Below, piece by piece: positions 10,736 through 27,676 of a stretch of DNA of 32,000 nucleotides. Source of the DNA: Okeania sp. Lineage in GTDB: Bacteria; Cyanobacteriota; Cyanobacteriia; Cyanobacteriales; Microcoleaceae. The translations under genes and the position numbers were made by a program. Below the pieces are notes generated by a model. That model ran no database searches. It was given only the letters and a program-made list of their open reading frames with translations, and had not been told where the DNA came from. The DNA lies in assembly GCF_035285525.1 (NCBI RefSeq), contig NZ_JAYKGW010000141.1:1-32000 (forward strand). Reading direction: 5' to 3'. The first letter of the stretch is position 1, and each line of letters starts with the position of its first letter.

Positions 10736-10963
10736 TATTAGAGGTGTGGTCGTCGTTTCGCGTCAGCGTTATGGAGCAAATAACCGTGAATACCTGTGCA
10801 TGAGTAACCACTGACGGTAGGGACGTTCTTATGCAATGTCCCTACACATCAATGTTTTAGGTTATGTGACGCTTTGTATCAGTTTGATGAAGCAGCAGAT
10901 ATCTGAGACAAAATCTTTAACTAAGGTTTTTATTTCAATCAGCCACAAAAAAATGATAATCTT

Positions 10964-10991
10964 GTAGGGATGCTGACAACATCCCTTTTTT
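10964..10991 (+). terminator. candidate Rho-independent terminator downstream of the Omp85 gene
   Basis: Stem GGGATG (10967-10972) / CATCCC (10980-10985), 7-nt loop, then T6 (10986-10991). It derives from the GTAGGGA(C/T)G hairpin repeat family. Confidence 0.35.
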
Positions 10992-11003
10992 ATGGTGCTT
11001 TAA

Positions 11004-11117
11004 TCAGTATTTATACTGTATTAATTATCTCTATTTAATTTTTTTGATTCGTCAAATTCTCAGGAAAATTGTCAGCGTAAATACTGACTTAATTGGTGAC
11101 TAATATGACTTTCTCCT
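11004..11117. repeat. 114-bp dispersed repeat, copy 1 (second copy 11638-11751)
   Basis: tcagtatttatactgta...attcgtcaaattctcaggaaaatt...actgacttaatt...atgactttctcct is shared by both copies. Confidence 0.85.
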
Positions 11118-11411
11118 AACTTTATACTACATTATATGATGCGGAATGTAGGTTATATAATTGAGGAGTTAAAAGGGCAAAAAATTTAGAACAATTTAGT
11201 ATAGCTAAACAGTAAAAAGTTTTCTATAGAAAATTAATTAAGCAATTAAGCAGATTTAAGATTGTTTATTGATGAAATGCTAATGCTATGGGAACAAAAT
11301 TAGTAGATGCACCCAAGATGGTTATTTCAGATGGGGAATGGATAATTTTATTTTTTCTTCCCTTGAAAAAGAGAAGGCTTGAAACCTAATTTTTTTTGCT
11401 TAAAACTTATG

Positions 11412-11501
11412 AGGACTTACTCATGGACGCTATATGTAGGGTGCGTTACTACATATGCAAAGGCACCAAGGCTCTATATATAGTGCCTTTGCGTAAGTCC
11501 T
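11412..11501. mobile_element. MITE-like element (AGGACTTAC... family)
   Basis: Termini aggacttactca / tgcgtaagtcct. The internal part is similar to copy 30136-30226 (gacgctat.tgtagg.tgcgttac...caccaag.ctctatatatagtgcc). Confidence 0.6.
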
Positions 11502-11637
11502 GCTTATGTTATAGCAGCTATAGTCTAGAAGTCAAAAGTTTTAGGTGAGCAAAAATTTATCCAATTAGTACAAATGATTTATCCCACATTCAGTACTCAA
11601 AGTTGTAGCACCAAAATCATGAAGAGTAGTGCTTGGG

Positions 11638-11751
11638 TCAGTATTTATACTGTATAAATTATCTCTATCTAACTTTATTTATTCGTCAAATTCTCAGGAA
11701 AATTTTCAGTATCAACACTGACTTAATTGTTGATTACTATGACTTTCTCCT
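11638..11751. repeat. 114-bp dispersed repeat, copy 2
   Basis: See 11004-11117. Confidence 0.85.
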
Positions 11752-12059
11752 GTTTGCTAAGCATTCCGTAGGAAATTATGACTTTTGACCCCGATTACAT
11801 ACTATAATCTGTTATACAAAATATAGGATTTAGACATAATTTAAACACTAATAGTGTATTTTCTCCTATTCAGAGTTTGTATGTGGTGAAAGATATCAAT
11901 TGTTTGTTTCAGATTTAGCTAGTTTTTGCAGTGATCGCTATCACATAAATAATGTGATTCTCTAGCAATCTATTAAATCAAACTCGAAATTAGTAGATGT
12001 AGCCAAGATAGTTAGGTCAGTAAAGATTGATCCAATTACTATGGATGGTTTACTTTATA

Positions 12060-12290
12060 TTACCGTTGTTGATCTGTACGTTCTTGACCTGGTGTAATAT
12101 TTTCGTCATCCCTTTCTATCTGAGCAGTTTCATCAATCTGAGCAATTAGAACTTCCCATGAGTCTTGTTGACCAAATTGTAATTGTTTTTGAGCTGTAAA
12201 ATTACTCTTAATTCCTGAAATCATATTGATTTCTGTTGATACAGAGCTAGCAAGAACCATAAAAATAAGTGAGGCTATGTATTTAGACAT
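12060..12290 (-). CDS. small signal-peptide protein (76 aa), paralog of 13002-13208
   Basis: Hydrophobic N-terminus. The conserved core KSNF.AQKQLQF.QQ.SWE.LIAQ.DET.Q...ITPGQ.R.D is shared with the paralog. Substitutions between the two copies preserve the reading frame, which supports real coding. Confidence 0.5.
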   Translation of the reverse strand: MSKYIASLIFMVLASSVSTEINMISGIKSNFTAQKQLQFGQQDSWEVLIAQIDETAQIERDDENITPGQERTDQQR

Positions 12291-12384
12291 GATTTAAACA
12301 TTAATAGTGTATTTTCTCCTGTTCAGAGTTTGTATGTGGTGAAAGATATGAATTATTAGTTTGAGATTTTAGTGGATATTTGCA

Positions 12385-12412
12385 GTGATAACGATCACAT
12401 CAATAATGTGAT
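12385..12412. promoter_or_regulatory. three-half-site palindrome GTGAT-N4-ATCACAT-N5-ATGTGAT (best copy of five)
   Basis: GTGAT 12385-12389, ATCACAT 12394-12400, ATGTGAT 12406-12412. Equivalent sites lie at 11931-11958, 12608-12635, 12774-12801 (GTGAC variant) and 12885-12912 (ATCGCAT variant). All sit upstream (sense = minus strand) of the small-gene copies. Confidence 0.45.
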
Positions 12413-13001
12413 TTTTTAGTTATCTGTTAAATCAAAAACGAAAGAAATTAGTAGATGTACCCAAGATAGTTAGATTAGTAAAAATCTATCCAATTACTAT
12501 GGATGGTCTATTTTTACTGCGGTTGTTGGTCTCTACCTTCTTGACCTGGTGTAATATTTTTGTCAGAAGACACCAATTATTGTTCAAAAATTTAGGTAGT
12601 CTTTGCAGTGATAATGATCACATCAATAATGTGATTTTTTAGTGATCTGTTAAATCGAAGTCGAAATGAGCAGATGCACCCAAGATAGTTAGGTCAGTCA
12701 AGATTGCTCCAATTAGTATGGATGATCTTATGTAGATATTAATTATTAGTTTAAGATTTAGTTCCTATATGCCGTGACTACGATCACATAAATAATGTGA
12801 TTTTTTGCTTAGTCCCTTAAACTAAAGTCAAAATTAGTACAAGATATATTAATTATTAGTTCGAGATTTAGTTACTCTATGCTGTGACTACGATCGCATA
12901 AATAATGTGATTTTCTACTTAGTCCCTTAAATCAAAGTCAAAATTAGTAGATGCTCCCAATTATAGTTAAGTTAGTAAAGATTGCTCGAATTAATTCTTT
13001 T

Positions 13002-13208
13002 TTATTCCTGTTGTTCGTCTCCACGAGTTTGACCTGGTGTAATATCCTGCTCCGTTTCATCTGTCTGAGCAATTAGAAGTTCCCATGACTCTTGTTGATC
13101 AAATTGTAATTGTTTTTGAGCTATGAAATTACTCTTAACTGCTGAAATTATATTGAGTCCAGTTAATACAGAAGTGGTAAGAATGATTGAAACTATGCAC
13201 TTAGCCAT
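13002..13208 (-). CDS. small signal-peptide protein (68 aa), paralog of 12060-12290
   Basis: Same conserved core and 5' leader (gatttaaacatta.taatagtgt...ttcct) as the 12060-12290 copy. Confidence 0.5.
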   Translation of the reverse strand: MAKCIVSIILTTSVLTGLNIISAVKSNFIAQKQLQFDQQESWELLIAQTDETEQDITPGQTRGDEQQE

Positions 13209-13750
13209 GATTTAAACATTAGTAATAGTGTGTGTTTTCCTATTCACATTTCGTGTTTAGAATCCGGAAACTATACAACTATGCTTAAATCATGTTTTCC
13301 TAAGTAGCATTACAAAAGAAAAGTCTGGATCATTTATATAGAAAATTTAAGTTATAGCAAGATTAAAGAAGTTAGAATGGCAGGAAAATTCTCAAAAATA
13401 ATGTTACAAAAAAAGCATTTCTACTAAAAATACTTAAAAAGGGTTATAATATAGGATTTGCTTAATTTAATATCAAAAAAAATGTGTAAGCATTCCGCAG
13501 TTAGCATTTTCTGCGGAATGGTACGCAAACAGTGGTCAGCTTAAATTTTTAGGACTTATACAAAGGCACTGTAGAACTCCTAACTGAATCTATAAAATTA
13601 GGTAGGGGATGAGGTGATGGGGAGGTGGGGTTATTTCACAGGGGTAGGGGTTTGGTCTCCCAACCCTCTGCAAAATATGACTTTTCGCTCTTTATTCTCT
13701 ATACTTTCCACACTTCTTTGTTTGGGGAGTCTGAGAAGGGTGAGGAGTTC

Positions 13751-14455: not shown

Positions 14456-14731
14456 ATTCTTTAATAGTTTAAACTTAGTTAACGTTTTTTTACCATATAA
14501 TATATCTTTGGTATGTATTAAAAGTAATAGACATCTTCAGAAAAGAGGGAACAGGGAACAGTTATGGGGAAAAAGAGATGATTAATTGATTCTTTATGGA
14601 TAAGAATTGATTATATTTTGAATTTTTGGAAATATCTAATAAGTACGTAAGCAAAATTAATTATATATTCTATTGACTTCTGGTTATTCCTTTCCTTTTC
14701 CCTGTTCCCTCTCTCAACTAAAGTTACTATC

Positions 14732-14825
14732 AGGACTTACGCAGCCACCCTAGATATAGTGCTTAAAACCCCATACGCAATAGTTTTTCAGATCTATTTA
14801 TATATAGTACCTTTGTGTAAGTCTT
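14732..14825. mobile_element. MITE-like element (AGGACTTAC... family)
   Basis: Termini aggacttacgca / tgtgtaagtctt. Confidence 0.55.
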
Positions 14826-14882
14826 GAGTATAATTAGGTTGATTATTATGAAAAATAGTATTATATTGAAATATTTATAAAT

Positions 14883-15075
14883 GTAAGCATTCAGCTATTA
14901 ATATCAAATCCACTTTTGGAGAATAAAATTAATATTGGCAAAAACTTAAATATTGGTAAGGTTTGGAGATCAAACCTCTACAATATTGAATTGTACCAAT
15001 ATTACTGAATTTGATATTATTTGTGAAATTTATGCTCTAAAGCTAATAGTTGAAAGCTGAAGGCTGAATGCTTAC
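14883..15075. mobile_element. 193-bp MITE-like element with 13-bp perfect inverted termini
   Basis: GTAAGCATTCAGC at 14883-14895 and GCTGAATGCTTAC at 15063-15075. It encloses a GGTTTGGAGA.CAAACC hairpin repeat and lies directly upstream of the helicase-TPR gene. Confidence 0.45.
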
Positions 15076-15111
15076 TAATAAATTCAAAGATAAAAATTGG
15101 AAAGTCAGTGT

Positions 15112-18100
15112 ATGTTATTACCCGCAGTTTTACACCCTGATATAGTAGAGTTTCTCCGCAAAGAGGTAGAAAGTAATTTACAAAAGAAAGTTTGGGAATG
15201 TATTCAAAGATTGAAGCAGCAAAAATTTAATAGTGGACTGCGGGTAAAAAAGCTCAAAGGAATAAACAAAAGAGTATGGGAAGCTAGAATTAATAGTGCT
15301 AGTCGCTTAATTTTCACATACGATAAATCACAACGACCAGAAACAGGAGAAACAGAAGTTTATTTAGTAATTCAAGATATTTGTTTAGACCATGATGATG
15401 TATCGCGACGTGCTAAAGCCAGACAAAAAAAACCTGATTATGAATGGCTAGAAACAACAGAATTTGAATTAATTGTAGAGACGAAAAGTTTCCAAATTCA
15501 AGATGATGATGCAGATGAAAATGTATCATATTCATCAGCAGAAGAAGCGAATATTGAAGCAGCAAAAGCTTTAGATTTAGAAATAAATTCAGATTTCACA
15601 GATGACGAGTTATTAGGAAATGTTGAGTGGCGAGTATTAGAGTCAGAAACAGAATGGCAAAAAGCGATTATTGAGCAAAATACAGATTTACCTTTAAAGC
15701 TAACGCCAGAAGAATATAAATTAGCTAAATTGTCAGGAAATTTATTATTAAATGGTAGTGCAGGTACAGGAAAAACTACCATCGCATTATATAGAATGCT
15801 GCAAAAAAAACCAGGTAGTAATTTAGGGAAACGTTTATATATTGCCTATAACAATTTGCTAGTTAATAATGCTGAAGAACAATTCCAGAAAATACTAACT
15901 ACGAATAGTCCATTAGAATTAGAATCAGAATCCCAAGACTCAACAAATAAAATAGTTTTTGAATTTAAAAATCTGCAAAAACTATGTTTAGAAATTCTCA
16001 GTAATTGTCAAATAAATTATTCTTCTCAAGATGAAGTAAACTATCAAGTATTCTCGGAAATGTACAAAGCCCATCCTAGTAGAAAACAATATTCAACAAC
16101 TTTAGTTTGGGAAGAAATTAGAGGTATGATTAAGGGTAAACAACTAGAAATTACACGAAGTATTTTATCAGAAAAAGAATATCAAAAAATCAGTAAAAAT
16201 AGCATAACATCAATGTATGTTAAGCAGAGAAAAGAAATATATAAAATAGCGGAATGGTATCAAAAAAAGCTAGAAAAAGAAAGATTGTATGATGAAATAG
16301 ATTTAGTCAGAGAAGTGCTGAGATTAATCAAAAAAGATGCTATTGAACAATATGATTTAATTGTTTGTGATGAAGTACAAGATTTAACAGAAATACAGTT
16401 AAAATTATTATTTGATTTAGCTTCTCCTAGTGGAAATTTGTTTTTTGCGGGAGATTCCTATCAAATGATTAGTCCTAGTGGTTTTCGATGGGAAACTCTA
16501 AAAGATAAATTTTATCCAGATAGAACAGTAGATGAACAAACTCTGAAATTTAACTTTCGGAGTGTAGGTAGTTTAGTAAAATTAGCGAATCAACTACTAA
16601 AATTACGTTCTAGATATTTAGCAGAACCGACAATCTATTATTCAAAAACTAATAGTTTTTATGGTCAACCAGCTAGACTAATTTCCGCAGATAATCAAAC
16701 ATTAGTAAGAATATTAAAAGAAACATCCATAAGTCCTGGCGATGCTATTTTAGTTAGAAAAGAATCAGATAAAGAAAAAATTAGAGCTGAACTAAATTCC
16801 AGTTTTGTTTTTACAATAGAAGAAATAAAAGGATTAGAATTTGATACAGTTTTTATCGTAGATTTTTTTCAGACACAAGCAAAACTTTGGGGTAAAGCAA
16901 TACGGGGTGGGGTACTAAAAGAAAAAGAAAAACCACAACTTCAACTAGAATTAAACTTACTTTATGTAGCAATTACCCGTGCCAGTAGAATATTAAATAT
17001 TTGGGAATCTAAACTTAGTCAACTTTGGCAAGAATCAGAATTAATAGGTTTATTTCAGTCAATAATTCCCGAATTAGTTACAAGTGATCGTATAGAACCT
17101 AGTTTAGAAACATGGCGTAAACAAGGAGAATATTATCTCAAAGCCGAATTTTATCAACAAGCAAAAGAATGCTTTAGTAAATCTGGGGATATAACTTTAG
17201 AAAAACACACTGAAGCTAAATTATTAATTCAAAAACAACTTTATAATGAAGCAGTAGAAATTTTACTTGAGTTAACAGAATGGCAAGAAGCAGCAGTTTT
17301 ATTTGAAAAATTAGAAAAGTGGCAAGAAGCAGGAATATGTTGGGCAAACATTGGGGAATATAATCACGAAAAAATTTGTGAAGCTTATCAACTAGAATCA
17401 AGTTCAAAATGGTCAGAAGCAGCTAAAAAATGGGAAGAAGTTTCAAATTTTGCTAATGCTAAACGTTGCTGGATGAATGTTCCCGAAAAAAAAGCAGAAT
17501 ATTCTGCTATGGAATTAGAAGAAAAGGAAGAATGGTTAAAAGCTGCCCTTGAATATGAGGTAGCCAAAATGCCAGACAAAGCAATATTTTGCAGAGCTAG
17601 AGAATATCAAAAGAGAAACCGATGGGAAGAAGCTATTAGTCGGTATGAATCAGTTGGTATGGACGAAGAAGCTGAAAAATGTCGCCAAGAAGCAATCAAT
17701 ATACTGTATAAACGAGGATTATTTAAGCTAAAAAACAAAGATTATAATGGCGCTCTAGAAGACTATAATCGCGCTCTAGTTTTAGAGTCAAATAATCATC
17801 TGTTATATCAGAATAAAGCTATTATTCTGGCGGAAATGGGAAACCTAAAAGAAGCAGCCAAAAATTTTAAAAGAGCATTAGAAATAGAACCCGAACATGT
17901 TCAAAGTTATTATAATTTAGGAGCAGCTTATGTAGAACTAGGAGAGTTTAATCTGGCTATAAAAGTTTTTTCCCAAGCTCTGGAATCAGGTTTTCGAGAC
18001 TATCAAATCTACCAAAACTTAGGAGTAGCTTATTTTAAAGCAGGAGACCACCAAGAAGCTATAGTAAATTATAATCAAGCTATAACACTTAATCCCCATA

Positions 18101-19485
18101 AACCAGAAATTTATTATAACCGAGGTGTTGCTCATCGTTTTCATGGAAATAATCAAAATGCAATTGATGACTTGACAAAAGTATTACAACTCAATCCTCA
18201 AGCAGCAGATGCTTATACCCAACGAGGTATTGTTAAATGTGACATGAGGGATCTCAAAGGAGCAACTGCGGACTTTGATGAAGCTATTAAACTTAATCCG
18301 CAAGATCCTGAACCTATCTATAAGCGAGCTATAATTCGTCGTATGTATAAAGATAATGAAGGTTCACTAGCTGATTTTAATGAAGTTATCAAGATTCGTC
18401 CTAAGTATGCAGATGCTTACATTAGACGAGGTAGAGTTCGTTTTGAACTTGACGATCATTTAGGCGCCCTAGATGACTTAGACTACGCAGTGCAACTGCA
18501 ACCTAAAAATGCAGAAGCTTATTATCATCGAGGTAATACGAAACTTAGTCTGTCTAATTTTGATGGTGCAAGATATGACTTTGAGGTGGCGATCACCTAT
18601 AAGCATGAATATTATCAAGCTTATAACGATTTGGGTGTTGTGTATCTGAGAACAGGAGATATTTTAGCTGCTATCAGAAACTTTGAAACAGCTATACAAA
18701 TTAACTCCCATTATGCTGATGCTTATAATAATCTAGGTTATACGAAATTTAATCTAGGGTATTCAGGAGCAATAAAACTTTTAGAAAAAGCTATAGAAAT
18801 TAATCCTAACTACGCTGAAGCATACAATAATTTGGGAAATTGTCGCCTGAAAACAAGAGATTTTCAGGGAGCAATAAGAGACTTTGGAGAAATTCTACGC
18901 ATTAATCCTAAGCACATTTCAGCTCTGAATAATCGAGCTTTAGCATATTTGAGATTAGAAGATTTCTCCAAAGCGATCGCTGATTGTCATACAGTGCTAG
19001 AAATTGCTCCCAACTATGCTTTAGCTTACTACAATTTAGGCTTAATTCACACTGAGATGGGAGATTTAGAGCAAGCCATTTTAGACTACAATGAATCATT
19101 AAGACTGTCTCCCCAAAATATTGACAGTTATATGAATCGAGGTCGAGTTTATTATAAGTTAAACAACTATACCCAAGCAGTTCAGGATCAAACCAGTGCT
19201 TTGAGTATTAATCCTAATATTCCTCAAGCTTATCGTTTGCGTAGCGAAGGATATATTCAATTAGGACAATTAAAAGAAGCTATTAATGATTTACAGAAAG
19301 CAGTAGATATTTACCAGCAACAAGCAAAACCACAAGAATACAAAAATATGAGCGCTTTAATTGAGAAAGTGGAAATCAGGAATCAAGAGTCAAGATTATT
19401 TAGGAGTCGAGACCAAAGAAAATCACCAAGATTTACTGGTTATTTTAATAATCTTGATCCGGACTTTAATAGCAAACCAGGTTGA
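15112..19485 (+). CDS. fusion protein: RelE/ParE-like N-domain + UvrD/REP-type SF1 helicase + long TPR array
   Basis: The ORF is open from TTG 15097; the first ATG is at 15112. The N-terminal KKLKGINKRVWEARINSASRLIFTY...VYLVIQDICLDHDDV follows the RelE/ParE toxin pattern. Walker A GSAGTGKTT (nt ~15754-15780), Walker B LIVCDEVQD (~16353-16382), KGLEFDTVFIVD and LYVAITRASR are SF1 motifs. From about aa 680 to 1400 there are about 20 TPR units (A.YYN.G.AY...G....AI..F..A....P). Confidence 0.85.
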   Translation: MLLPAVLHPDIVEFLRKEVESNLQKKVWECIQRLKQQKFNSGLRVKKLKGINKRVWEARINSASRLIFTYDKSQRPETGETEVYLVIQDICLDHDDVSRRAKARQKKPDYEWLETTEFELIVETKSFQIQDDDADENVSYSSAEEANIEAAKALDLEINSDFTDDELLGNVEWRVLESETEWQKAIIEQNTDLPLKLTPEEYKLAKLSGNLLLNGSAGTGKTTIALYRMLQKKPGSNLGKRLYIAYNNLLVNNAEEQFQKILTTNSPLELESESQDSTNKIVFEFKNLQKLCLEILSNCQINYSSQDEVNYQVFSEMYKAHPSRKQYSTTLVWEEIRGMIKGKQLEITRSILSEKEYQKISKNSITSMYVKQRKEIYKIAEWYQKKLEKERLYDEIDLVREVLRLIKKDAIEQYDLIVCDEVQDLTEIQLKLLFDLASPSGNLFFAGDSYQMISPSGFRWETLKDKFYPDRTVDEQTLKFNFRSVGSLVKLANQLLKLRSRYLAEPTIYYSKTNSFYGQPARLISADNQTLVRILKETSISPGDAILVRKESDKEKIRAELNSSFVFTIEEIKGLEFDTVFIVDFFQTQAKLWGKAIRGGVLKEKEKPQLQLELNLLYVAITRASRILNIWESKLSQLWQESELIGLFQSIIPELVTSDRIEPSLETWRKQGEYYLKAEFYQQAKECFSKSGDITLEKHTEAKLLIQKQLYNEAVEILLELTEWQEAAVLFEKLEKWQEAGICWANIGEYNHEKICEAYQLESSSKWSEAAKKWEEVSNFANAKRCWMNVPEKKAEYSAMELEEKEEWLKAALEYEVAKMPDKAIFCRAREYQKRNRWEEAISRYESVGMDEEAEKCRQEAINILYKRGLFKLKNKDYNGALEDYNRALVLESNNHLLYQNKAIILAEMGNLKEAAKNFKRALEIEPEHVQSYYNLGAAYVELGEFNLAIKVFSQALESGFRDYQIYQNLGVAYFKAGDHQEAIVNYNQAITLNPHKPEIYYNRGVAHRFHGNNQNAIDDLTKVLQLNPQAADAYTQRGIVKCDMRDLKGATADFDEAIKLNPQDPEPIYKRAIIRRMYKDNEGSLADFNEVIKIRPKYADAYIRRGRVRFELDDHLGALDDLDYAVQLQPKNAEAYYHRGNTKLSLSNFDGARYDFEVAITYKHEYYQAYNDLGVVYLRTGDILAAIRNFETAIQINSHYADAYNNLGYTKFNLGYSGAIKLLEKAIEINPNYAEAYNNLGNCRLKTRDFQGAIRDFGEILRINPKHISALNNRALAYLRLEDFSKAIADCHTVLEIAPNYALAYYNLGLIHTEMGDLEQAILDYNESLRLSPQNIDSYMNRGRVYYKLNNYTQAVQDQTSALSINPNIPQAYRLRSEGYIQLGQLKEAINDLQKAVDIYQQQAKPQEYKNMSALIEKVEIRNQESRLFRSRDQRKSPRFTGYFNNLDPDFNSKPG

Positions 19486-19545: not shown

Positions 19546-19646
19546 GGGACTGATCACACGCGCAACCAAGAAACCGGGTTTATCGCTCTGATATTGTCGT
19601 TAAAACCACGAAATTCTTTCATAAACCCGGTTTCTGCATAAGCCCT
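19546..19646. mobile_element. MITE-like element, left flank of the four-gene island
   Basis: Perfect 15-bp internal inverted repeat AGAAACCGGGTTTAT (19569-19583) / ATAAACCCGGTTTCT (19621-19635). It ends 1 nt from the stop codon (19648-19650) of the 990-aa gene. It is a direct-orientation homolog of 28289-28389. Confidence 0.6.
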
Positions 19647-19647
19647 G

Positions 19648-22620
19648 TTAATCTAACTCAGGTGTAACTCCATTCGTTTCTTGTTGATGCTGGTAATCAG
19701 AATCACTCCTAACAATATTTGCATCAGATAACCTAAAGTAATCTACCAGCTTTCTGGGAATATCTAGTATTATTGGAACTTTTAAAGAATACTCATACTG
19801 AATAGAGTCCGATCTTAATTCATGTACAACTCGTGCCCATCCTTCTCGTAGATGAGATTCGTCTGTTGGCACTTTCTGTACAATAAGTTCCACAGGTGTT
19901 CCTTGATGTGGTCTCTGCGACCACTTATTAGGAAGTTGTTCATAATAAATGGTTTTTCCGTCTTTAATTTTTTGAGCTGAGATGAGAACGACTTTATCAG
20001 TTTGATATTTACAACCATTTGCATAATCTGTTCCCATTTTATAAGGTTCAGATGAATATTTCTCCAAGTTATCTATTACCTCTTTCCAAGACTTACTCCC
20101 AGGATAATTTTTGAGCTTCTTTTGATCATTTTCATCCTTCCAAGTTTCATCATATTTTACTTCTTTAAAAGAGTCATCAAGCTTGGAAAAATTAGCGTTG
20201 TGTTGAACAACTCCACGGTCTCCTAGACTTATGTAAATGAAATTATTAACTGGATAAAGTTCTGCACTTGCATAACCTGGATATAATTCTCTATCAATAA
20301 TAATAGGGTTTCTTTTCTCTTTCCAAATTTTATATGCTGTAGATACTTCTTGAGTGCTACTTTTGACAATAACTATTCTCAGATTATCAAAAACAGATTT
20401 TGAACCAGTCGGAACAAAAGGTAATTCATCTAAACAACATTTTTCTGTAGATAAATTAGGAATTACTTGTCTAATATTGTCTTCTTGTACAACTAAAAGC
20501 ACATTCTTGCTAGAGTTTTCGCACAAATTTTTCAGATTTTCTACAAAAAAAGTGCGCACTTTTTGTAAAGCTTTCTCTTTTTGATTATCTTTCAATTCTA
20601 CATATTCTAAATCGTCTGATGCCAATAAAATTTGTGCTTCTTTAACTGATAACCAATTTGTATTATCTTGATTATCTTTTTTATTTTTATTAGCATTCAT
20701 CAAAAGAAGAGAAATTTTTCCAGTGTCATTATTTATTTGTGTTATGACTGGCATAAGTTTAGCAACATTATTAGATGCAGTTTTGCCTGTTATCCTCAGA
20801 ACAAAAAAGCTGACAATTAATAGATTCTCTGGCGCATTTAATACTTCTTGATTTGTCAGTTTAACAATTTCAAATTTTTTGTGACAAGGAATATCTAACT
20901 GTCTCATTAAGTCACTAATTGCATTATTAACACGACTTACTATTTGGACATCTTTTTCCTCTATAATTTTCTCTTCACCAGTCTTTTTATTGCGTCTTAT
21001 TTCGTCGTATGACGTGACAATAAACTGACTAACTATATCAAGTTTAGATAGAATTTTAGTATTAATTGTTTTAGGGTCATTTCTGCCATTTTTGTATTCA
21101 GGATAATCGGCACCTTGAATGGCAATTAAAGCACAGTCAAATGAACAGTTATATTCATTTTCTACTGCTTTAATCATCTCCATAATTTCTGTTTCCCTAC
21201 TACTTATTTTTTCCTTGTCATTTTGCTGACAGGAGCTAACAAAGATATTTGCTAAATCCTCAGATGCCCGAATAATATTGATAGGAAGTTTAACTTGACT
21301 TTCTTTATAGACTTCATTTTTTAATTCATCAAATCCCTTTTCAACTTTTTTATATAATCTATTAAACTGTTCAGGGATTGATACTAAAATATTTATAGAT
21401 TTATTTTGTTGTGCAAATTGTCTTAATGGATTTACTTCAGTTAAATGATTTTTATTCCTAGAAACTTTAACATCGCACTCACTTAATGAATTTGTTGGTT
21501 CAAATTCAGGGAATTTTTTGAACAAATCAAAAATCAAACGTTTATCATGAGAAAATAAACCTTCTTTAGGAATTTCCATTCTAGTTGGTTTTAGTAATGT
21601 TGTTGTTTTTAAAACTAAAACTGTCAAATTTCCAGCATTAAGTTGTTCAGGAATAATTCCATGTTGTGGAATAGCTGAAATAATTTTATCCGGTTCGGGA
21701 GTTAAATTGTTTCCTTCCTCCAAACCGTTTAAAACATCTAAAACTTTGTTTCTAAAGATATATTCTCCATCTCGCTTAATTAAACTAACTGCCTGTAAAC
21801 TTCTATTAAATGGAAGTGTTTTTTTCCAGTAATTTGCAGGTGCTTGAATATGTAAACTAGCAGCACAATTATACTTAGGTTCAAAAGGTTCAGTAATATA
21901 ACGTCGTATTGAGGGATGAATATAAATCTTGGGCGTTGAATCAAAATAACGGAAACCAACTTTAAAGTTCAAACATAAACTACTTAAACCTTTTAATTGA
22001 CTATTTTTTAGCTGTTGTGGTTTAGGAGGCCATTCTTGTATTTCTCCTGGATTTGGTGACTTAATAAACTTGTATTTTTCTCTACCAATAAGTATTGGTT
22101 CATTTTGAGAATAATTAACAATTTTTACAGCGATCGCATCAGCTACAGCTAGTTTCCAAGATAAACTATTCTTCTCAAAAGGAAGGTCTATTAAATTAAT
22201 TTTTTGGGATGGTTCTATTGATTCTAATCCTTCTTGAAGTAGCTCATAATCTTCATCTGAAAAATTTTCTCGGTTGCTAAACTCTACACTTAACCAAGAT
22301 AATAAAACTAATTTTATAGACTCACTATCTATCGGTTCTCCATTAGACATTAACCAATATTGCCTCAAAATTTCATTTTCTTCCTTAGCTATACCTCTAC
22401 CTGTTGATAACACACCACTAGATGCACGAATAGTATCATTTAATGATGCTACAGGAATGAAATTTTCTCCTGTAGCACGTCTATTTTTTTTCTTAATTTT
22501 CTGATAAATCTGATTTAGATTATTGAACAATTCCTCTGGAAAGGATGTATACCAGATAGGCAATGTTTCTTTAATATCGAAACTATAAATTAATTCTTGT
22601 AAGATTTTTTTGTCACTCAT
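19648..22620 (-). CDS. 990-aa protein, candidate pPIWI-RE (Argonaute-related PIWI) module protein
   Basis: Uninterrupted 990-aa ORF with no P-loop or classical nuclease motif. Its size and its position as the last gene after a REase-fold nuclease and a large SF2 helicase match the PIWI-RE three-gene island. The C-terminal VHELR...KVPIILDIPRKLVDY resembles the C-terminal element of PIWI domains. Confidence that it is a real CDS is about 0.9; the score given is for the functional call. Confidence 0.55.
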   Translation of the reverse strand: MSDKKILQELIYSFDIKETLPIWYTSFPEELFNNLNQIYQKIKKKNRRATGENFIPVASLNDTIRASSGVLSTGRGIAKEENEILRQYWLMSNGEPIDSESIKLVLLSWLSVEFSNRENFSDEDYELLQEGLESIEPSQKINLIDLPFEKNSLSWKLAVADAIAVKIVNYSQNEPILIGREKYKFIKSPNPGEIQEWPPKPQQLKNSQLKGLSSLCLNFKVGFRYFDSTPKIYIHPSIRRYITEPFEPKYNCAASLHIQAPANYWKKTLPFNRSLQAVSLIKRDGEYIFRNKVLDVLNGLEEGNNLTPEPDKIISAIPQHGIIPEQLNAGNLTVLVLKTTTLLKPTRMEIPKEGLFSHDKRLIFDLFKKFPEFEPTNSLSECDVKVSRNKNHLTEVNPLRQFAQQNKSINILVSIPEQFNRLYKKVEKGFDELKNEVYKESQVKLPINIIRASEDLANIFVSSCQQNDKEKISSRETEIMEMIKAVENEYNCSFDCALIAIQGADYPEYKNGRNDPKTINTKILSKLDIVSQFIVTSYDEIRRNKKTGEEKIIEEKDVQIVSRVNNAISDLMRQLDIPCHKKFEIVKLTNQEVLNAPENLLIVSFFVLRITGKTASNNVAKLMPVITQINNDTGKISLLLMNANKNKKDNQDNTNWLSVKEAQILLASDDLEYVELKDNQKEKALQKVRTFFVENLKNLCENSSKNVLLVVQEDNIRQVIPNLSTEKCCLDELPFVPTGSKSVFDNLRIVIVKSSTQEVSTAYKIWKEKRNPIIIDRELYPGYASAELYPVNNFIYISLGDRGVVQHNANFSKLDDSFKEVKYDETWKDENDQKKLKNYPGSKSWKEVIDNLEKYSSEPYKMGTDYANGCKYQTDKVVLISAQKIKDGKTIYYEQLPNKWSQRPHQGTPVELIVQKVPTDESHLREGWARVVHELRSDSIQYEYSLKVPIILDIPRKLVDYFRLSDANIVRSDSDYQHQQETNGVTPELD

Positions 22621-22690
22621 AATGATTTTGTTCTATGAAAGTAGTGTTCTAAACATCCGTTCTGCTTCCACGGAAGAATATGAAAGGTGG

Positions 22691-23080
22691 AGCAAGTGCA
22701 GCAGCTATATTGCCAGTCTTTGCTATATGGATGTTTGATTTTTCTCTGCTCTGACTTACAGGAGATGTACTATATATAGAATCAAAAAACTATTGTACAA
22801 GAGTTTTAAACCTTATATATATGATATATGCCTAAGTCGCGCCACCATAGTTACAGAAGTTTTCCCCAGTAACTATATTGCCAGTCTTTGCTATATGGAT
22901 GTTTGATTTTTCTATTGTTCATTTCATTTTTCTATTGTTCAATAGTTACAGCAGTTTTCCCCCAGTAGCTATATTGCCAGTTTTCCGAGAAGGATGTTTG
23001 ATTTTTCTATTGTTCAATAGTTACAACAGTTTCCGTCCGTTGATGAAGTACGTCTGCGCAGCAAGTGTGGCAGTTATATC
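22691..23080. repeat. imperfect direct repeats (3-4 copies) in the gap between the helicase and the 990-aa gene
   Basis: The core CTATATTGCCAG-N12-GGATGTTTGATTTTTCT occurs at 22704-22745, 22871-22913 and 22968-23008. The extended unit atagttaca.cagtt starts at 22847, 22942 and 23017 (spacing 95 and 75 bp). agcaagtg.gcag.tatat occurs at 22691 and 23061. There is an internal 18-bp duplication, tttttctattgttca. Confidence 0.85.
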
Positions 23081-23100
23081 AATACTTTCATGCAACAAAG

Positions 23101-26100
23101 CTACTCATAATAGTAATAATTTGTATCTTTAACGTCAACAGAATCTCCCATCATATCAATAAGAGATTTGTCAAATGGTTTGTACAAAGCACTTCCGACA
23201 GAATTATCTTTGTACTTCATCGCTTCATCAGCAATAGCTACCAACAAACTACTAGCAGCACTATCATAAGTAGAATCTGTCATACCAGAAATTCTCCTTT
23301 GTGCTGTCTTAGGTGCAAATGCGCTATCAACAAAGTAAAGGTGGAAAGAAACACCCCCACGCACCGCCCTTCCTACAACTTGAGTAATCATAACTCGAAG
23401 AGTCGAAGCAATATCCGAACGTAGATCGAGTTCTGGAGTTGCTGTCAGTTTTGAGTATTGAATAGGTAACCCCATAATCTTGTCACAATAGTTTTTAGCA
23501 TCAGTCCGATATTTGTTCCCTAAACTAGCTAAACTAGGATTGTTTGACTTTTTTTCCTTAAATACATATCTAGGGTGTTCCGAATCAAGAGCATCTAACG
23601 CCCAAGCATTCAAAAACCCAATCAAAAGTAGAGGATCGTTCGGAACCGGAAAAGGTCTCGCTAAAAATACCACAACCCCAAAAGCTGCAACTCTTTCAGC
23701 ATTCAGAATATTATGTCCTCGTTCAACTGCCAGAATAGGAGCAATCAAAATTTTAGCGTTCTCTATTTCGGCAAATCGTGAAACATCACTTCTTTGGATA
23801 AAATCAATATCATCACCTAAATTATTGCTATCTCTCCCTAGCGCGACAATTTTTACATTTTTGTCATTGTATTCTCTTTGCAGTGCAGCAGCAACTATAG
23901 CACTATCTGCATAGGAACCTACCAAAAGTAAAGCTCGTTTTCTATCTCCGGCAACTCGATCTATCCAATTATCTATTTTAGTTTTATTGTTAGATTGAAC
24001 TTTGCAAATATCTATAGCTATTTGTTCTAATGCCTCTTGTTTATTAGAATTTCCAGATACTTTAATTGGTTGAGATGTATTTGCTCTTGAAGGTTCAAAA
24101 GATGTTTTTGATTCATTAATAATAGTATTAATACTTGATTCATCAGGACGAAGAACAATATTGACAGGAATTTGTAAATGATACTTTGATGAAGTTCCAG
24201 CCCAGGAAGTTCCTGACATTAATAGTACATTGCAACCAGGAATATTATTCCAAGTAAATAAATTATGGTAATTATATAGTAAATGTCTGCCAACTCCAGA
24301 AAAATTTATAACATCTAGTTTACCTGGTATTCTAGGAGATGAAATATCTTTAGTGTATTTAAAAAACTGTCCTGAACTGATAATAGGAGATGAAGGAAGC
24401 ACTCTAGAAAATTCATCTGAAGATTTAAAGAACGATATATCAGGGTCAATGTCAAAAATTTCTTTGTAGTAAGGAGCGTAGAAAAGTATTGATTGAATAC
24501 AATCAGATAATTGAGTAAAAAGAATTGCTAAATACAGCTTCTTACTTAAAATAGTCCTAGTTTCTTTATCTATTTTTACATTTTTTAGACCTTTTAAAGA
24601 TTCAATCCAATCTACAATATCAACCAATCCTGCTTCTTTATCTATGACTATTCTGGCAATATATTTTAATCCCCATAACATTTTATTTAGCAGTTCTGAA
24701 CTTAAAACTGAACTATCATTTATTGAATCTCCAGTAAAAACATTAAAAATAGCTTCTAGTATTTCTTGATTTTTTAGTTCTCCAGGAAAAAATAAATCTG
24801 ATAATGTTTTAGCTACATCAGTAAAAAGTTGAGAAGATTTAAAAAAACCAGAATCAACTAACCAATTTTCTAAGGATGTATCATCTAATAAAGGTAAAAT
24901 TCTGTTAGCTAAATTATCTGCATTTTTAATATCAACCTGCCAATTTTCTACCTGGGGTTTCCGAAAAAGATGTCCGCGATTAGTTTCTTGATTGCGTTTA
25001 TTTAGAGTTGAAATAAGCCTAGTAATTACTGGTGTTTCTCCTTTGCCAAATAAATGTAAATTCGGACAAAATTCAGAATCAAAATAGACTTGAATATTAT
25101 CAGATTCATCAAATATTATTAGAGAGCTAGCAATATAAATTAATTCACCATATTTAACCTTATAAAGACCTTTAATAAGTTGTCTAGGTACATTTGATTT
25201 CAACAGTGCTTGTGGAGTTGTAATCCAAACAATACTATCAATAACTGCAAGGTCTCCCTGTTTACTAGGACAAACATGAAAAAAAGGACACATCCAATTA
25301 CTTGTAGATGGTTCCTCTGGATTCTTTCGAGATGGCGATCGCAAGTTATTACAGGGAGCTATAGCAGATTCTAAAACATGAAAATCTTCCTCATCTAAAT
25401 AGTTATCCAACAAACAAATTGTAGAAAGTGATGCTGCATTTGCACTATCATCCAAAGATTCTTGTCTACGGATAACAGAATTATGGATTTGACTTGTATA
25501 AGAATAGCGATTAGAAACACCGATAATAGTTGCTGCCTGTTGGTTAAGTCCTTTTAGGAAAATATTTAATTCCTCTTCTACATCCTTGCATTCCATGACA
25601 CTGCCAAAAACCAGAGTGGTTCGGAGATTATGCTTTGCTTGATGTACTGCTACAATTTTAGCAAGAGTGCTTTTGCCTGCATTTACCATACCAACTAAAT
25701 TAACAGTGCCATCTAAATGTAAAGTTTCATCTGGAGTTCCGTCATAACACTGCCAAAATGTTTTATTTAAAATCCTTTCATATTTTCCTGACTTTCCTTT
25801 ATTAATTAGTTGTTCATCCATCCAACAAGCAGTTTCCATTAATTCTGCTTTTGTATAAGTGACATTCCCTTTTTGATTGTTATACTGAGTTAAATCAGAT
25901 AAATTAAAACCTGGTAACTGACTCTTTCTTCTAGCTTGTTGTATAGGATTACCTTGTGTTGGATTAATTCCTAATCGGTTTAAAACCAAGTTATAGTCAT
26001 CTTCTGGTATTTTATAAGATTTGACATCTTCTCCTTTTTGGGGATTTCCCGATAAATAGTGTTGATCAGGACGCGCATATTTAACTGTTGTATCATTTTC

Positions 26101-26556
26101 TTGATAAATGTCTAAATTTCCATTATTAAATATACGATGATAGTCTTGCTCCCGCGTAGCTAATAAACCACTACCCATAGATTGAATAGGTGCAGATAAA
26201 ACAGCATCTGGAAACCATCTCAGATATTGTGGGATAATTTTTTGGTAAGCATCTAAACGCTCCGAAAGTATTTTAGTAGAACGCAAAACTGGCAAAAGAT
26301 ACGATGCTTTTCTTACTTTGTGGCGATCGCTTGTTGATAAGTTCTGTAGTCCTTCGTGTGGCAAATCATATAAACATAGCAGGAAACTTAAACTTTCTAC
26401 AGGTTCATTTGGCATTACCAAGTGTAATAAATACAATCCTGCTTCCAGCTCAATAAACTCTTTTGCTGTTAAATCTCCTAGAGAAAATTGGTTGGAGTTA
26501 TCAATAATATTCTCTAAATCTGTTATAAGAGGAGTCAATACATTTGTTTCAAACAT
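23101..26556 (-). CDS. large SF2 (DinG/DEAD-like) helicase with ~270-aa unassigned N-terminal region
   Basis: 1151 aa. P-loop GMVNAGKST (nt ~25668-25691), IIFDESD (nt 25100-25120), motif VI QVVGRAVRGG (nt 23354-23383). The start overlaps the upstream gene's stop by 8 nt (ATGTTTGA). Confidence 0.8.
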   Translation of the reverse strand: MFETNVLTPLITDLENIIDNSNQFSLGDLTAKEFIELEAGLYLLHLVMPNEPVESLSFLLCLYDLPHEGLQNLSTSDRHKVRKASYLLPVLRSTKILSERLDAYQKIIPQYLRWFPDAVLSAPIQSMGSGLLATREQDYHRIFNNGNLDIYQENDTTVKYARPDQHYLSGNPQKGEDVKSYKIPEDDYNLVLNRLGINPTQGNPIQQARRKSQLPGFNLSDLTQYNNQKGNVTYTKAELMETACWMDEQLINKGKSGKYERILNKTFWQCYDGTPDETLHLDGTVNLVGMVNAGKSTLAKIVAVHQAKHNLRTTLVFGSVMECKDVEEELNIFLKGLNQQAATIIGVSNRYSYTSQIHNSVIRRQESLDDSANAASLSTICLLDNYLDEEDFHVLESAIAPCNNLRSPSRKNPEEPSTSNWMCPFFHVCPSKQGDLAVIDSIVWITTPQALLKSNVPRQLIKGLYKVKYGELIYIASSLIIFDESDNIQVYFDSEFCPNLHLFGKGETPVITRLISTLNKRNQETNRGHLFRKPQVENWQVDIKNADNLANRILPLLDDTSLENWLVDSGFFKSSQLFTDVAKTLSDLFFPGELKNQEILEAIFNVFTGDSINDSSVLSSELLNKMLWGLKYIARIVIDKEAGLVDIVDWIESLKGLKNVKIDKETRTILSKKLYLAILFTQLSDCIQSILFYAPYYKEIFDIDPDISFFKSSDEFSRVLPSSPIISSGQFFKYTKDISSPRIPGKLDVINFSGVGRHLLYNYHNLFTWNNIPGCNVLLMSGTSWAGTSSKYHLQIPVNIVLRPDESSINTIINESKTSFEPSRANTSQPIKVSGNSNKQEALEQIAIDICKVQSNNKTKIDNWIDRVAGDRKRALLLVGSYADSAIVAAALQREYNDKNVKIVALGRDSNNLGDDIDFIQRSDVSRFAEIENAKILIAPILAVERGHNILNAERVAAFGVVVFLARPFPVPNDPLLLIGFLNAWALDALDSEHPRYVFKEKKSNNPSLASLGNKYRTDAKNYCDKIMGLPIQYSKLTATPELDLRSDIASTLRVMITQVVGRAVRGGVSFHLYFVDSAFAPKTAQRRISGMTDSTYDSAASSLLVAIADEAMKYKDNSVGSALYKPFDKSLIDMMGDSVDVKDTNYYYYE

Positions 26557-27676
26557 GATTCTTAATTAAGTCAATTAATTCGCTTTCGTAATAAATTTTT
26601 TCATCTGAATGCTCGATAAATACCTCTTTGTAATTTGGTGTTTTTGCTTTCCGTGCATCTGGAACAACAAAACAGTATTCATCACCTTCTATTCCATATT
26701 TTTTAATATCGTTCATAGGAAAACCTTTTTCGTCACATTTTTGTGCTAAACCATCAGCACTAACCCAGTCCTTGACATCCACACACAATTTATATTCATC
26801 TGGACAAACAATTAGTAAATCGTAAGAATCAAGTCCCGGCCACATTGTCACTTTACATCCGAGTTCTTTAGCTTTATCTCGCAATTTAAGTTCCGGTACT
26901 GAAGGCGAAACCAGAAAATATCGAATGTCTGGAGCTGCTAGTTTGACCGTTTCATTAGGTTCTATATAATCAATAATAATTTCCTTATTTTGTGAAGTGT
27001 TGAAGTCACATTTATGTACCGCACAAATCATTCTTTCATTATACATAGTCACCAGACTTCCACATAATTTACATCTGGCAATTTTATTATTGATAAATTT
27101 GCTAGCAGGAACACAATGAGTATATACCACATCGAAAATTCCCTCTTCTAAAGTTTTTGAATTATCTTTAAATTTTGCTTTAAACTTTGCTTTAAATTTT
27201 ATCCTTTCTTGCAGAGTTGTAATTGAATGCTTGGCTAAAAATTCTCTAACTTGCCGATAGATAGCATCCTTTTCTTCGATGGTTTTACTGCGTGATATTA
27301 GAGCTATAATTTTCTGGTAAACTTCTCTTTGAAGCAGTCCCGACTTATTGCTTTCGATAACATCTTGGGCAAATTCTCGACATTCTTCAGTAATTCTAAT
27401 TTCAGGAATATTTTCTAGTAGATAAATATCTTCCTCTTGAGAAAAATCAAGAGGCCAGTTGATTAAAGAAGTTGTTTTACAGAGCTTAATAACCTCTCCT
27501 AAACTTTGAATAATTGGTTGATTTGCTCTTAAGGATAACAGTGCTAATTGATTTAATGCTCGTTGTAAATTTTTAGGGTAAGGATGAGTAATACCTCCTT
27601 CTTGTTCATAAGCACTCTCTAGGTCTACTAATCCAGTTACAAGTAAATCAAAACAGGTTTCAGATGTCACTTTCAT
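26549..27676 (-). CDS. Zn-ribbon + PD-(D/E)xK (restriction-endonuclease fold) nuclease
   Basis: The ORF is open from ATG 27694, but ATG 27676 is preceded by a perfect AGGAGG with a 9-nt spacer. CKLCG...ICAVHKC is a Cys cluster. CPDEYKLCVDVKDW (nt 26765-26809) fits D...(D/E)xK. Confidence 0.7.
   Translation of the reverse strand: MKVTSETCFDLLVTGLVDLESAYEQEGGITHPYPKNLQRALNQLALLSLRANQPIIQSLGEVIKLCKTTSLINWPLDFSQEEDIYLLENIPEIRITEECREFAQDVIESNKSGLLQREVYQKIIALISRSKTIEEKDAIYRQVREFLAKHSITTLQERIKFKAKFKAKFKDNSKTLEEGIFDVVYTHCVPASKFINNKIARCKLCGSLVTMYNERMICAVHKCDFNTSQNKEIIIDYIEPNETVKLAAPDIRYFLVSPSVPELKLRDKAKELGCKVTMWPGLDSYDLLIVCPDEYKLCVDVKDWVSADGLAQKCDEKGFPMNDIKKYGIEGDEYCFVVPDARKAKTPNYKEVFIEHSDEKIYYESELIDLIKNHV

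Follow-up and report, generated by a model that had tools for sequence, protein, structure and literature searches.

A stand-alone ArmD-like protein combining a RelE/YoeB-type domain, a UvrD-type helicase and a TPR solenoid, encoded next to a pPIWI_RE cassette in Okeania

The 32,000-nt stretch of the Okeania sp. genome analyzed here (contig NZ_JAYKGW010000141.1, positions 1 to 32,000; hereinafter the window) encodes, on the plus strand at 15112-19485, a protein of 1457 amino acids (aa) that consists, in this order, of a RelE/YoeB-fold domain, an acidic disordered linker, a superfamily 1A (SF1A) UvrD-type helicase, degenerate helical repeats and 16 canonical tetratricopeptide repeats (TPRs). 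Sequence and profile comparisons indicate that the first ~640 residues are homologous to ArmD, the product of the fourth gene of the type II ARMADA anti-phage system of E. coli (bioRxiv 10.1101/2025.09.15.676423). New here is the stand-alone, TPR-extended, vertically inherited form; the module itself is already known through ArmD (2025), and its domains have been annotated automatically, several homologue records at JGI bearing labels like 'Txe/YoeB family toxin / superfamily I helicase / TPR'. By analogy with ArmD, we propose that this protein may be a stand-alone, motor-tethered enzyme of the RNase type that is gated by its TPRs and has become fixed in the chromosome for surveillance against mobile elements or phages, a reading to which we assign a probability of roughly 0.45, that is, somewhat short of even odds.

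The open reading frame (ORF) extends from either a TTG at 15097 or an ATG at 15112 to the stop codon ending at 19485. The ATG is the true start, and the TTG is rejected, because all 17 orthologues begin with M-[SL]-L-P-A-V-L-H-P-D at this position and conservation ends just upstream; the public gene call also gives 1457 aa. An earlier, sequence-only reading of this DNA had described a single ORF of 1457-1462 aa joining three parts, and this description is accurate, with all the motifs it quoted present. The curated Pfam thresholds are exceeded by a UvrD helicase (aa ~204-630) and by closely spaced TPRs (aa ~850-1420), and the first 200 residues carry no annotation.

The only description of a RelE-helicase fusion that we found in full-text searches is that of ArmD (bioRxiv 10.1101/2025.09.15.676423). 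All four genes of the type II system and the Walker A lysine of ArmD are needed for protection (bioRxiv 10.1101/2025.09.15.676423), and a second study confirms the need for ArmD (mBio 2026, PMC13463889). For the comparison, armD was taken from E. coli ATCC 8739, where it was located via two merged published mutagenesis primers. In BLASTP, the helicases are 23% identical (E 5e-15); the profile of the N-terminal domain aligns with ArmD over residues 22-96 (E 0.003), with the equivalents of R59, R65, H94 and D95 retained; and the comparison of a 139-sequence profile of the module with ArmD using hhalign yields a probability of 99.7 (E 4.6e-27; 587 columns), with query residues 4-636 corresponding collinearly to ArmD residues 7-697. 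Like the window protein, ArmD contains a RelE-like domain, an acidic linker and a UvrD/GajB-like SF1 helicase in the same order, and the charges agree as well, the domain being basic (+4) and the linker acidic (-14). It is because these lines of evidence concur that we consider the first ~640 residues of the window protein to be an ArmD homologue. The label 'GajB-like' rests on PADLOC hidden Markov model (HMM) matches and an HHpred result in the ARMADA paper.

The differences between the two proteins are nevertheless substantial. ArmD, at 704 aa, ends after the helicase, without a solenoid or TPRs, whereas the window protein adds ~800 aa of repeats; ArmD is encoded by the last gene of an operon and requires all its partners, whereas the window gene stands alone beside surE and is vertically inherited; and at position 46, ArmD has a Glu, as does YoeB, whereas the window protein has a Lys, with its E57 being invariant instead. 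The sequence-only reading recognized no named system in this architecture. For the RelE-linker-helicase module, this does not hold, given its homology with ArmD, whereas for the complete protein it does, inasmuch as ArmD lacks the TPR tail and there is no ARMADA operon at this locus. The full-text literature searches recovered no description of the stand-alone, solenoid-extended, vertically inherited family, with only the ARMADA papers surfacing, and the RelE-helicase-TPR architecture is not described in Kaur et al. 2020 (PMC7159879) or in the HEPN survey (PMC3710099).

The N-terminal domain (aa 1-108; 15112-15435) has to be considered in some detail. When aa 1-105 are scanned alone, the Pfam models Gp49, YoeB, HigB and ParE_like together with TIGR02116 all match the same stretch, below threshold. 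It was the fold search that decided the question. The AlphaFold2 model built on an alignment of 48 sequences (A1) has a mean predicted local distance difference test score (pLDDT) of 81.8 and a predicted template modelling (TM) score of 0.74, and shows the topology E5-7, H9-16, H22-35, E45-47, E55-59, E65-74, E81-91 (E, strand; H, helix), followed by a C-terminal helix. In a Foldseek search of the PDB, essentially all of the top 30 matches to this model are YoeB, RelE, RelK, YafQ, HigB and H. pylori RelE-like toxins, with a probability of ~1.0 for the top 20 and target-normalised TM scores of 0.6-0.75. This predicted topology and these structural matches provide for a solid assignment of the domain to the RelE/ParE superfamily fold, closest to YoeB, in agreement with the RelE/ParE-like sequence pattern that had been noticed at the N-terminus. 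A single-sequence phmmer search of the PDB with the domain returned spurious matches only.

The catalytic set of YoeB, which we take to be E46, R65, H83 and Y84 in the E. coli numbering with E46 as the general base, can be mapped onto this domain, given that the A1 profile aligns with YoeB without gaps, query residues 17-71 corresponding to YoeB residues 17-71 (the E. coli YoeB sequence used is identical to 2A6Q_E). Eight residues, most of them charged, are invariant in A1, namely G42, R44, L48, E57, R59, R65, H94 and D95, and are retained from cyanobacteria to the Acidobacteria-type members. In the gapless register, the invariant R65 corresponds to the catalytic R65 of YoeB; R59 is conserved as well, and the invariant E57 lies on the neighbouring strand. 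H94-D95 follow the last strand by three residues, as H83-Y84 do in YoeB, a correspondence drawn from the topology rather than from a superposition. With this qualification for H94-D95, the eight residues are predicted to cluster where YoeB has its active site. The domain is also the most conserved region among the orthologues, with 86% mean identity and the lowest ratio of nonsynonymous to synonymous substitutions (dN/dS, omega), 0.135, and it carries a net positive charge in 97% of the 139 family members.

The linker (aa 109-195; 15436-15696) is largely predicted to be disordered, with AlphaFold2 pLDDT below 50 at aa 95-103, 113-140 and 152-171. Its net charge is -15 in the window protein and negative in all 139 family members (median -10). 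In the orthologue alignment, aa 101-150 are poorly and aa 151-200 well conserved, and the linker ends in a conserved pre-helicase segment, W-x-V-L-E-S-E...L-K-L-T-x-E-E.

The central part of the protein (aa 196-645; 15697-17046) is a complete, intact SF1A helicase of the UvrD type with the two-RecA-domain fold, in line with the complete UvrD/Rep motor claimed from the sequence. The Pfam families UvrD-helicase (PF00580), UvrD_C (PF13361) and AAA_19 (PF13245) match above threshold, and the GajB and RTasHel models of PADLOC match the same region. Motifs I to VI are invariant in 40 diverse family members, comprising, in the window numbering, Walker A at G215-T222, motif II at D420-E421-x-Q423-D424, motif III at G447-D448-x-x-Q451, motif IV at R483, motif V at K573-F577 and motif VI at Y618-R623. 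In the AlphaFold2 model of aa 1-660 (pLDDT 81.5), the N-terminal domain is confident and the helicase core exceeds pLDDT 90. The best Foldseek matches of the helicase model are UvrD, PcrA and Rep, followed by HelD, UvrD1, FBH1, AdnB and AddA; SLFN11 is among the distant matches, and GajB is not among the top 50. The solved structures nearest to the helicase by sequence, as detected by phmmer, are distant (E ~1e-6).

The combination of these parts is not peculiar to Okeania. A search with aa 1-656 retrieved 189 relatives, mostly cyanobacterial, with a second group, at ~30% identity, from Acidobacteria-type and spirochaete metagenomes. Among the 120 relatives listed, the N-terminal domain is present in 116, where it is better conserved than the helicase; the remaining four start within the helicase or just upstream and look N-terminally truncated. 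In a collection of 1.84 billion representative proteins, the profile of this domain has only 263 matches at E<=1e-3, nearly always with the domain at the very beginning of a protein 800-1900 aa long. Because all 77 matched proteins of at least 700 aa also contain the helicase, at a near-fixed distance (the Walker A motif is at residue ~185-240 in all but four proteins with N-terminal extensions), the RelE-like domain, the linker and the helicase constitute an obligate unit. The C-terminal part differs between clades and can be canonical TPRs, leucine-rich repeats, a degenerate TPR/SNAP-like solenoid, a second helicase or nothing at all. As a separate observation, Shigella dysenteriae plasmids (hits H20-H25) encode a UvrD-like helicase, in one record named 'Ankyrin repeat protein', that matches the helicase only (aa 218-639, 27% identity), a helicase-plus-repeat fusion without the RelE-like domain.

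In the window protein, the helicase is followed by ~200 aa of degenerate alpha-helical repeats of the 'W-x-E-A-A' type (aa 646-864; 17047-17703), recognizable from the translation, the family consensus and weak self-HMM matches. The first repeats after the helicase are conserved throughout the family, the Acidobacteria-type members included, and in distant members this region gives degenerate TPR/SNAP-like Pfam matches. The TPR array proper is detected by Pfam TPR_1 (E 1.6e-95, 12 stretches) and related TPR models; repeat register and a self-HMM count resolve it into 16 contiguous 34-residue TPRs (aa 865-1408; 17704-19335), such that the ~20 repeats of the very long solenoid estimated earlier are a fair approximation. 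Across the 18 orthologous proteins, the array (570 aa) shows one single-residue indel, and the number of TPRs is fixed.

No antitoxin-like partner recurs in ~30 sampled family loci, and the gap of ~640 bp between surE and the window gene holds no antitoxin-sized ORF, the ORFs lying wholly inside it being only 22-35 aa long, none of them conserved. Thus, the adjacent cognate antitoxin gene that characterizes type II toxin-antitoxin systems was found neither in the upstream gap nor in the ~30 family loci. Genes for 75-aa helix-turn-helix proteins that lie upstream in Tolypothrix and on plasmid pEu1 were considered as a conserved partner and dismissed, being mutually unrelated and absent elsewhere.

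Any model of the function of this protein should accommodate these features, and the one we favour can be outlined as follows. The alpha-solenoid of degenerate repeats and 16 TPRs most likely would bind a protein ligand or partner, this platform either recognizing a protein cue or docking the enzyme on a partner complex. The helicase would bind and track single-stranded nucleic acid at the expense of ATP, with the basic RelE/YoeB-fold domain of the endoribonuclease type suspended from an acidic disordered leash of ~80 residues. In the resting state, the acidic linker, the remainder of the protein or both would keep this domain in check; such internal restraint is proposed because there is no antitoxin gene. 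Once released, the domain would cut RNA locally, either mRNA on ribosomes, as YoeB and RelE do, or the tracked strand, so that expression from the offending nucleic acid, or in the cell as a whole, would cease. The likeness of the module to ArmD, a proven component of a defence system, lends this putative defence role support by analogy, and the clade-to-clade swapping of the C-terminal module together with the plasmid location of some family members also counts for a role in defence or mobility.

There are, however, findings that weigh against the reading we prefer, and there are alternatives to it. Concerning the domain itself, the best scores stay below the Pfam and NCBIfam thresholds (Gp49, 18.3 bits with a cut-off of 23.9; YoeB, 17.5 with 27; TIGR02116, 19.2 with 51.8); the matches of the A1 profile to the PDB, although YoeB and RelK chains are the only top ones, are weak (E 0.02-0.9), as is the hhalign match of the domain profile to the single YoeB sequence (E 0.013). 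Moreover, E46 of YoeB aligns with a near-invariant Lys (K46) and Y84 is replaced by D95, so the catalytic residues in aa 1-110, unlike the fold, are kept only in part (R65 is, E46 and Y84 are not), and catalysis is not assured. ParE-type members of the RelE fold are not RNases. The domain could thus have been domesticated into a module devoid of catalytic activity that binds nucleic acids or ribosomes or serves in regulation; the protein would then in essence be a DNA helicase of the UvrD type carrying a TPR scaffold, which would also be compatible with an antitoxin gene being needed nowhere. We consider this quite unlikely: the eight invariant residues persist from cyanobacteria to the Acidobacteria-type members, with R59, R65, H94 and D95 shared even by ArmD, the domain has the lowest omega in the protein, and alternative catalytic sets are on record for RNases of the RelE fold (PMC3710099).

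The second group of findings concerns genomic context and evolution. A genome scan identified 18 orthologous loci in Dapis, Okeania, Trichodesmium and other Microcoleaceae, with 63-84% identity over the module, and in 16 of these the gene divergently adjoins surE. In two divergent Acidobacteria-type genomes, the gene is part of a common YqeY-SelB-CoA_binding-[gene]-TPR protein-LOR block, and in Nostocales it lies between cobW/dtd and cysS-tldD; the contexts in Tolypothrix and Chamaesiphon are likewise ordinary. (In the Acidobacteria-type loci L029 8001-12821 and L031 8001-12749, the gene that comes next encodes a separate TPR-like protein of ~450 aa, and in this clade a portion of the solenoid may have a gene of its own.) Median pairwise dN/dS values (121 pairs) are 0.135 for the RelE-like domain, 0.21 for the helicase, 0.26 for the TPR array and 0.20 for surE from the same genomes. 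Mean identity to the orthologues is 69% for the linker, 76% for the helicase, 69% for the degenerate repeats and 60% for the TPR array. An omega close to that of surE, combined with the fixed number of TPRs, is unlike a typical immune sensor, and a sensor engaged in an arms race was rejected on these grounds; as judged from these values, the evolution of the gene in the Microcoleaceae clade is housekeeping-like. Defence neighbours are inconsistent across the sampled loci. The sequence-only reading had itself named consistent housekeeping DNA-repair contexts of the homologues, without association with defence islands, as contradicting it; the contexts observed, in which housekeeping genes are commonest, come near to this, except that they are those of general housekeeping and not of DNA repair. 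The window lineage shows a peculiarity in that dN/dS of the degenerate repeats and TPRs (17047-19335) is 0.36-0.50, compared to ~0.25 in all other pairs, with that of the RelE-like domain staying near 0.1; this could reflect relaxed constraint or lineage-specific adaptation.

These observations suggest that the same biochemistry might serve the cell rather than immunity, in quality control of nucleic acids or translation, for instance at stalled ribosomes or in conflicts between transcription, translation and replication: entry into ribosomal A sites or cleavage of aberrant RNA would fall to the RelE-like domain and removal of nucleic acid or protein to the helicase, with the TPRs providing a scaffold for partners from the cell. 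Vertical inheritance beside surE, the conserved blocks in the Acidobacteria-type genomes and Nostocales, values of omega of 0.14-0.26 against 0.20 for surE, the invariant TPR count and the lack of both an antitoxin and consistent defence neighbours all fit such a role, which we regard as possible yet rather doubtful. Against it, ArmD, the one homologue of the module on which experiments have been done, belongs to a defence system, and C-terminal swapping between clades is more typical of conflict systems. Furthermore, although most chromosomal contexts are stable and housekeeping-like, a minority of family members are plasmid-borne or lie beside defence or mobile genes. Crocosphaera cce_0635, which lacks TPRs, is flanked by insertion sequence (IS) elements and a group II intron. 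Members are also found on the plasmids pCRI9333.06 of Crinalium (L025) and pEu1 of Euhalothece (L026) and on a Paraclostridium plasmid (L027), three unrelated replicons on each of which ParA-type partition genes are within one or two genes of the family member; on pEu1, another '3'-5' exonuclease'/UvrD-like gene comes after it, with VapC and cas1 nearby, and some plasmid-borne members lie among VapC, CRISPR and DUF262/DUF3696 genes. Finally, because the family is small (the 263 clusters among 1.84 billion representatives), it is not a universal housekeeping gene.

A further difficulty for the stand-alone surveillance reading is that ArmD functions only with ArmA, ArmB and ArmC, and these are absent from the window. 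Type II ARMADA has the strict gene order armA (BrxHII-like)-armB (PglX-like methyltransferase)-armC (YprA-like helicase)-armD and resides on mobile islands (bioRxiv 10.1101/2025.09.15.676423), and we observed the same armABCD order in locus L024. No ArmA/B/C-like gene, that is, no methyltransferase and no YprA/BrxHII-like ORF, is present in the 32-kb window, where a divergent surE lies upstream of the gene, and no ArmA/B/C-like gene was found in ~30 sampled family loci. That the protein acts in trans, as the fourth member of an ARMADA-like system whose ArmABC proteins are encoded at another genomic site, would be in keeping with the relationship to ArmD, the dependence of the latter on ArmA-C and the report of type I (three-gene) ARMADA in cyanobacteria (bioRxiv 10.1101/2025.09.15.676423). 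Given the strictness of the operon order, the missing partner genes and the added solenoid of ~800 aa, which suggests an autonomous recognition module, we consider such a scenario very improbable.

The remaining alternative is the one implied by the neighbourhood in the window itself. Immediately downstream, on the minus strand (19648-27694), lies a complete three-gene pPIWI_RE ('Ppr') system that encodes a PIWI protein of 990 aa, a DinG-like helicase with domain Z of 1151 aa and a restriction endonuclease (REase) with domain Y of 381 aa, and the PIWI gene is convergent with the helicase-TPR gene, their stop codons being 162 nt apart. The sequence-only reading correctly identified this neighbour as a convergent PIWI-like defence cassette; its further proposal, that the two make up a two-system defence islet, is not supported by the synteny. 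The cassette is found downstream of the gene in only two of the 18 orthologous loci, the window and Okeania sp. SIO3I5 (L010), compared to 16 with surE as the neighbour, and selection on the gene is surE-like, with a fixed number of TPRs. Nor does the AT-rich block distinguish an island, since surE, the syntenic housekeeping neighbour, lies within the same low-GC stretch. At the other orthologous loci, the downstream genes are unrelated, encoding a macro domain protein, AAA-WD40, Ser/Thr kinase-GUN4, HEAT, GTPase and SulP proteins and, elsewhere, TPR-CHAT, threonine aldolase, vWA and nonribosomal peptide synthetase. The same gene-pPIWI_RE arrangement recurs on one metagenome contig, which, along with the close convergent adjacency here and in SIO3I5, is what a composite islet has in its favour. 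Between the window and SIO3I5, however, the cassette proteins are 86-90% identical and the helicase-TPR protein 74%, which suggests a separate, more recent history of the cassette at this site; in addition, pPIWI_RE is a self-contained three-gene unit, and the two transcription units are separate and convergent. Thus, a composite islet is hardly credible, a functional link to pPIWI_RE was rejected on synteny, the cassette being missing from the other 16 orthologous loci, and the helicase-TPR gene is independent of it.

The junction with the cassette might still have left a mark on the gene. In the C-terminal tail (19336-19485, including the stop codon), delineated by alignment with the orthologues, the last ~37 residues (aa 1421-1457; 19372-19482) are unique to the window genome, with 0-5% identity, the 17 orthologues ending ~37 aa earlier. 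This unique segment abuts the junction with the pPIWI_RE cassette, the insertion of which may have altered the 3' end of the gene. On the other side of the cassette, a 182-aa ORF (27660-28208, minus strand) lies immediately upstream of the PprRE gene, the start of which it overlaps. Scans with Pfam, PADLOC and NCBIfam gave no match to this ORF; an uncharacterised fourth cassette gene and a spurious ORF are both conceivable.

Several features of the surrounding sequence deserve mention. The divergent intergenic region shared with surE (14456-15111), defined from the ORF listing and the alignment of orthologous upstream regions, corresponds in 16 aligned upstream regions (L006-L023) to a region with a common block, TAGTATTGTGTTAAACTA, ~50 nt before the start codons, which looks like an extended -10 element and, compared by eye, poorly matches the cyanobacterial LexA-box consensus. 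The counterpart of this block in the window (~15040-15075) has diverged. Matches to promoter-like and terminator consensus sequences in the window are at chance level, no commoner than in shuffled sequences, and no Rfam family or tRNA was detected in it. The same intergenic region contains an 18-nt inverted repeat, AGAGGGAACAGGGAACAG / CTTTTCCCTGTTCCCTCT (14544-14561 / 14695-14712; 94% complementary, 133 nt apart), whose 'TGTTCCCTGTTCC' motif is found ahead of the L007 and L019 orthologues as well, which gives it the look of a small dispersed repeat. The interval between the convergent stop codons contains a hairpin, GAAACCGGGTTTAT...ATAAACCCGGTTTC (19570-19636), that lacks a T-run; similar GAAACCGGGTTTC palindromes are located upstream of the orthologues in L022 and L023, and the hairpin could be either a dispersed element of the palindromic type or a terminator acting in both directions. 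Farther upstream, between the Omp85/BamA gene and surE, the window contains an ORF-poor, AT-rich stretch of 3 kb (10800-13750) with degenerate direct repeats of 100-170 nt spaced by ~450 nt. Within these repeats, two paralogous small ORFs on the minus strand, 12060-12290 (76 aa) and 13002-13208 (68 aa), both combine a hydrophobic, signal-like N-terminus with an acidic, Gln-rich tail; the other copies look decayed.

Returning to the stand-alone surveillance reading, one can envisage a bolder version, in which the protein is an autonomous single-protein system with a UvrD-type motor patrolling nucleic acid, a RelE-type, ribosome-dependent mRNase, an acidic leash serving as the built-in antitoxin and a fixed set of TPRs that read a conserved protein cue; such systems would span cyanobacteria, Acidobacteria-type bacteria and some Firmicutes and Fusobacteria, with ArmD being a truncated derivative recruited into ARMADA. 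We regard this version as unlikely. Regardless of the fate of this version, a partner-free form of the ArmD module lets the coupling of an SF1 motor to a RelE fold be studied in one polypeptide. A toxin-fold domain has here been maintained for a long time without an antitoxin gene, and the conserved acidic leash is a candidate for built-in control. The locus is also a caution for island-based annotation: a gene with the layout of effector, motor and sensor lies beside a true defence cassette, yet evolves like a resident housekeeping gene.

How, then, does this protein compare with known systems apart from ARMADA? The N-terminal domain shares the fold and the strand order with the YoeB/RelE toxins (E. 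coli YoeB, PDB 2A6Q; S. aureus YoeB, 7V5Y), and the likeness to YoeB extends to the gapless register over residues 17-71, the retention of R65 and R59 and a His after the last strand, like H83. YoeB, however, is a free toxin of ~85 aa, whereas the window domain is fused and has no antitoxin gene; ten additional residues between strands 4 and 5 and a further helix at the C-terminus also set it apart. The helicase has the SF1A fold with all motifs in common with GajB of Gabija and with UvrD, PcrA and Rep, but its core comprises ~450-465 aa compared to 620-650 aa in the matched UvrD/PcrA/Rep chains, and because the core is so compact, an accessory subdomain is probably reduced. The suggested resemblance to Gabija-like defence proteins holds only for the helicase, with partial matches to GajB models (best E 1.2e-12); GajA was found in none of the seven neighbouring proteins scanned. 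The order of an N-terminal effector, a central NTPase and a C-terminal TPR array recalls Avs and other STAND (signal transduction ATPases with numerous domains) sensors, as had been pointed out, and this is a reasonable analogy but nothing beyond it: the NTPase of the window protein is an SF1 helicase, no STAND family passes the threshold in a Pfam/PADLOC scan of the protein, and there is no sign of sensor diversification.

Parallels for the proposed mechanism come from farther afield. In CapRel(SJ46), a fused toxin-antitoxin, the toxin domain is restrained by its own polypeptide chain. In Schlafen-11/13 and in UPF1-SMG6 of nonsense-mediated decay, an RNase is physically coupled to an SF1 helicase; their RNase folds are unrelated to the N-terminal domain described here, and we claim no homology beyond the helicase superfamily. 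Should the autonomous version of the hypothesis be borne out, the window protein would represent a bacterial counterpart of Schlafen or UPF1-SMG6, coupling nucleic acid surveillance to the shut-off of translation.

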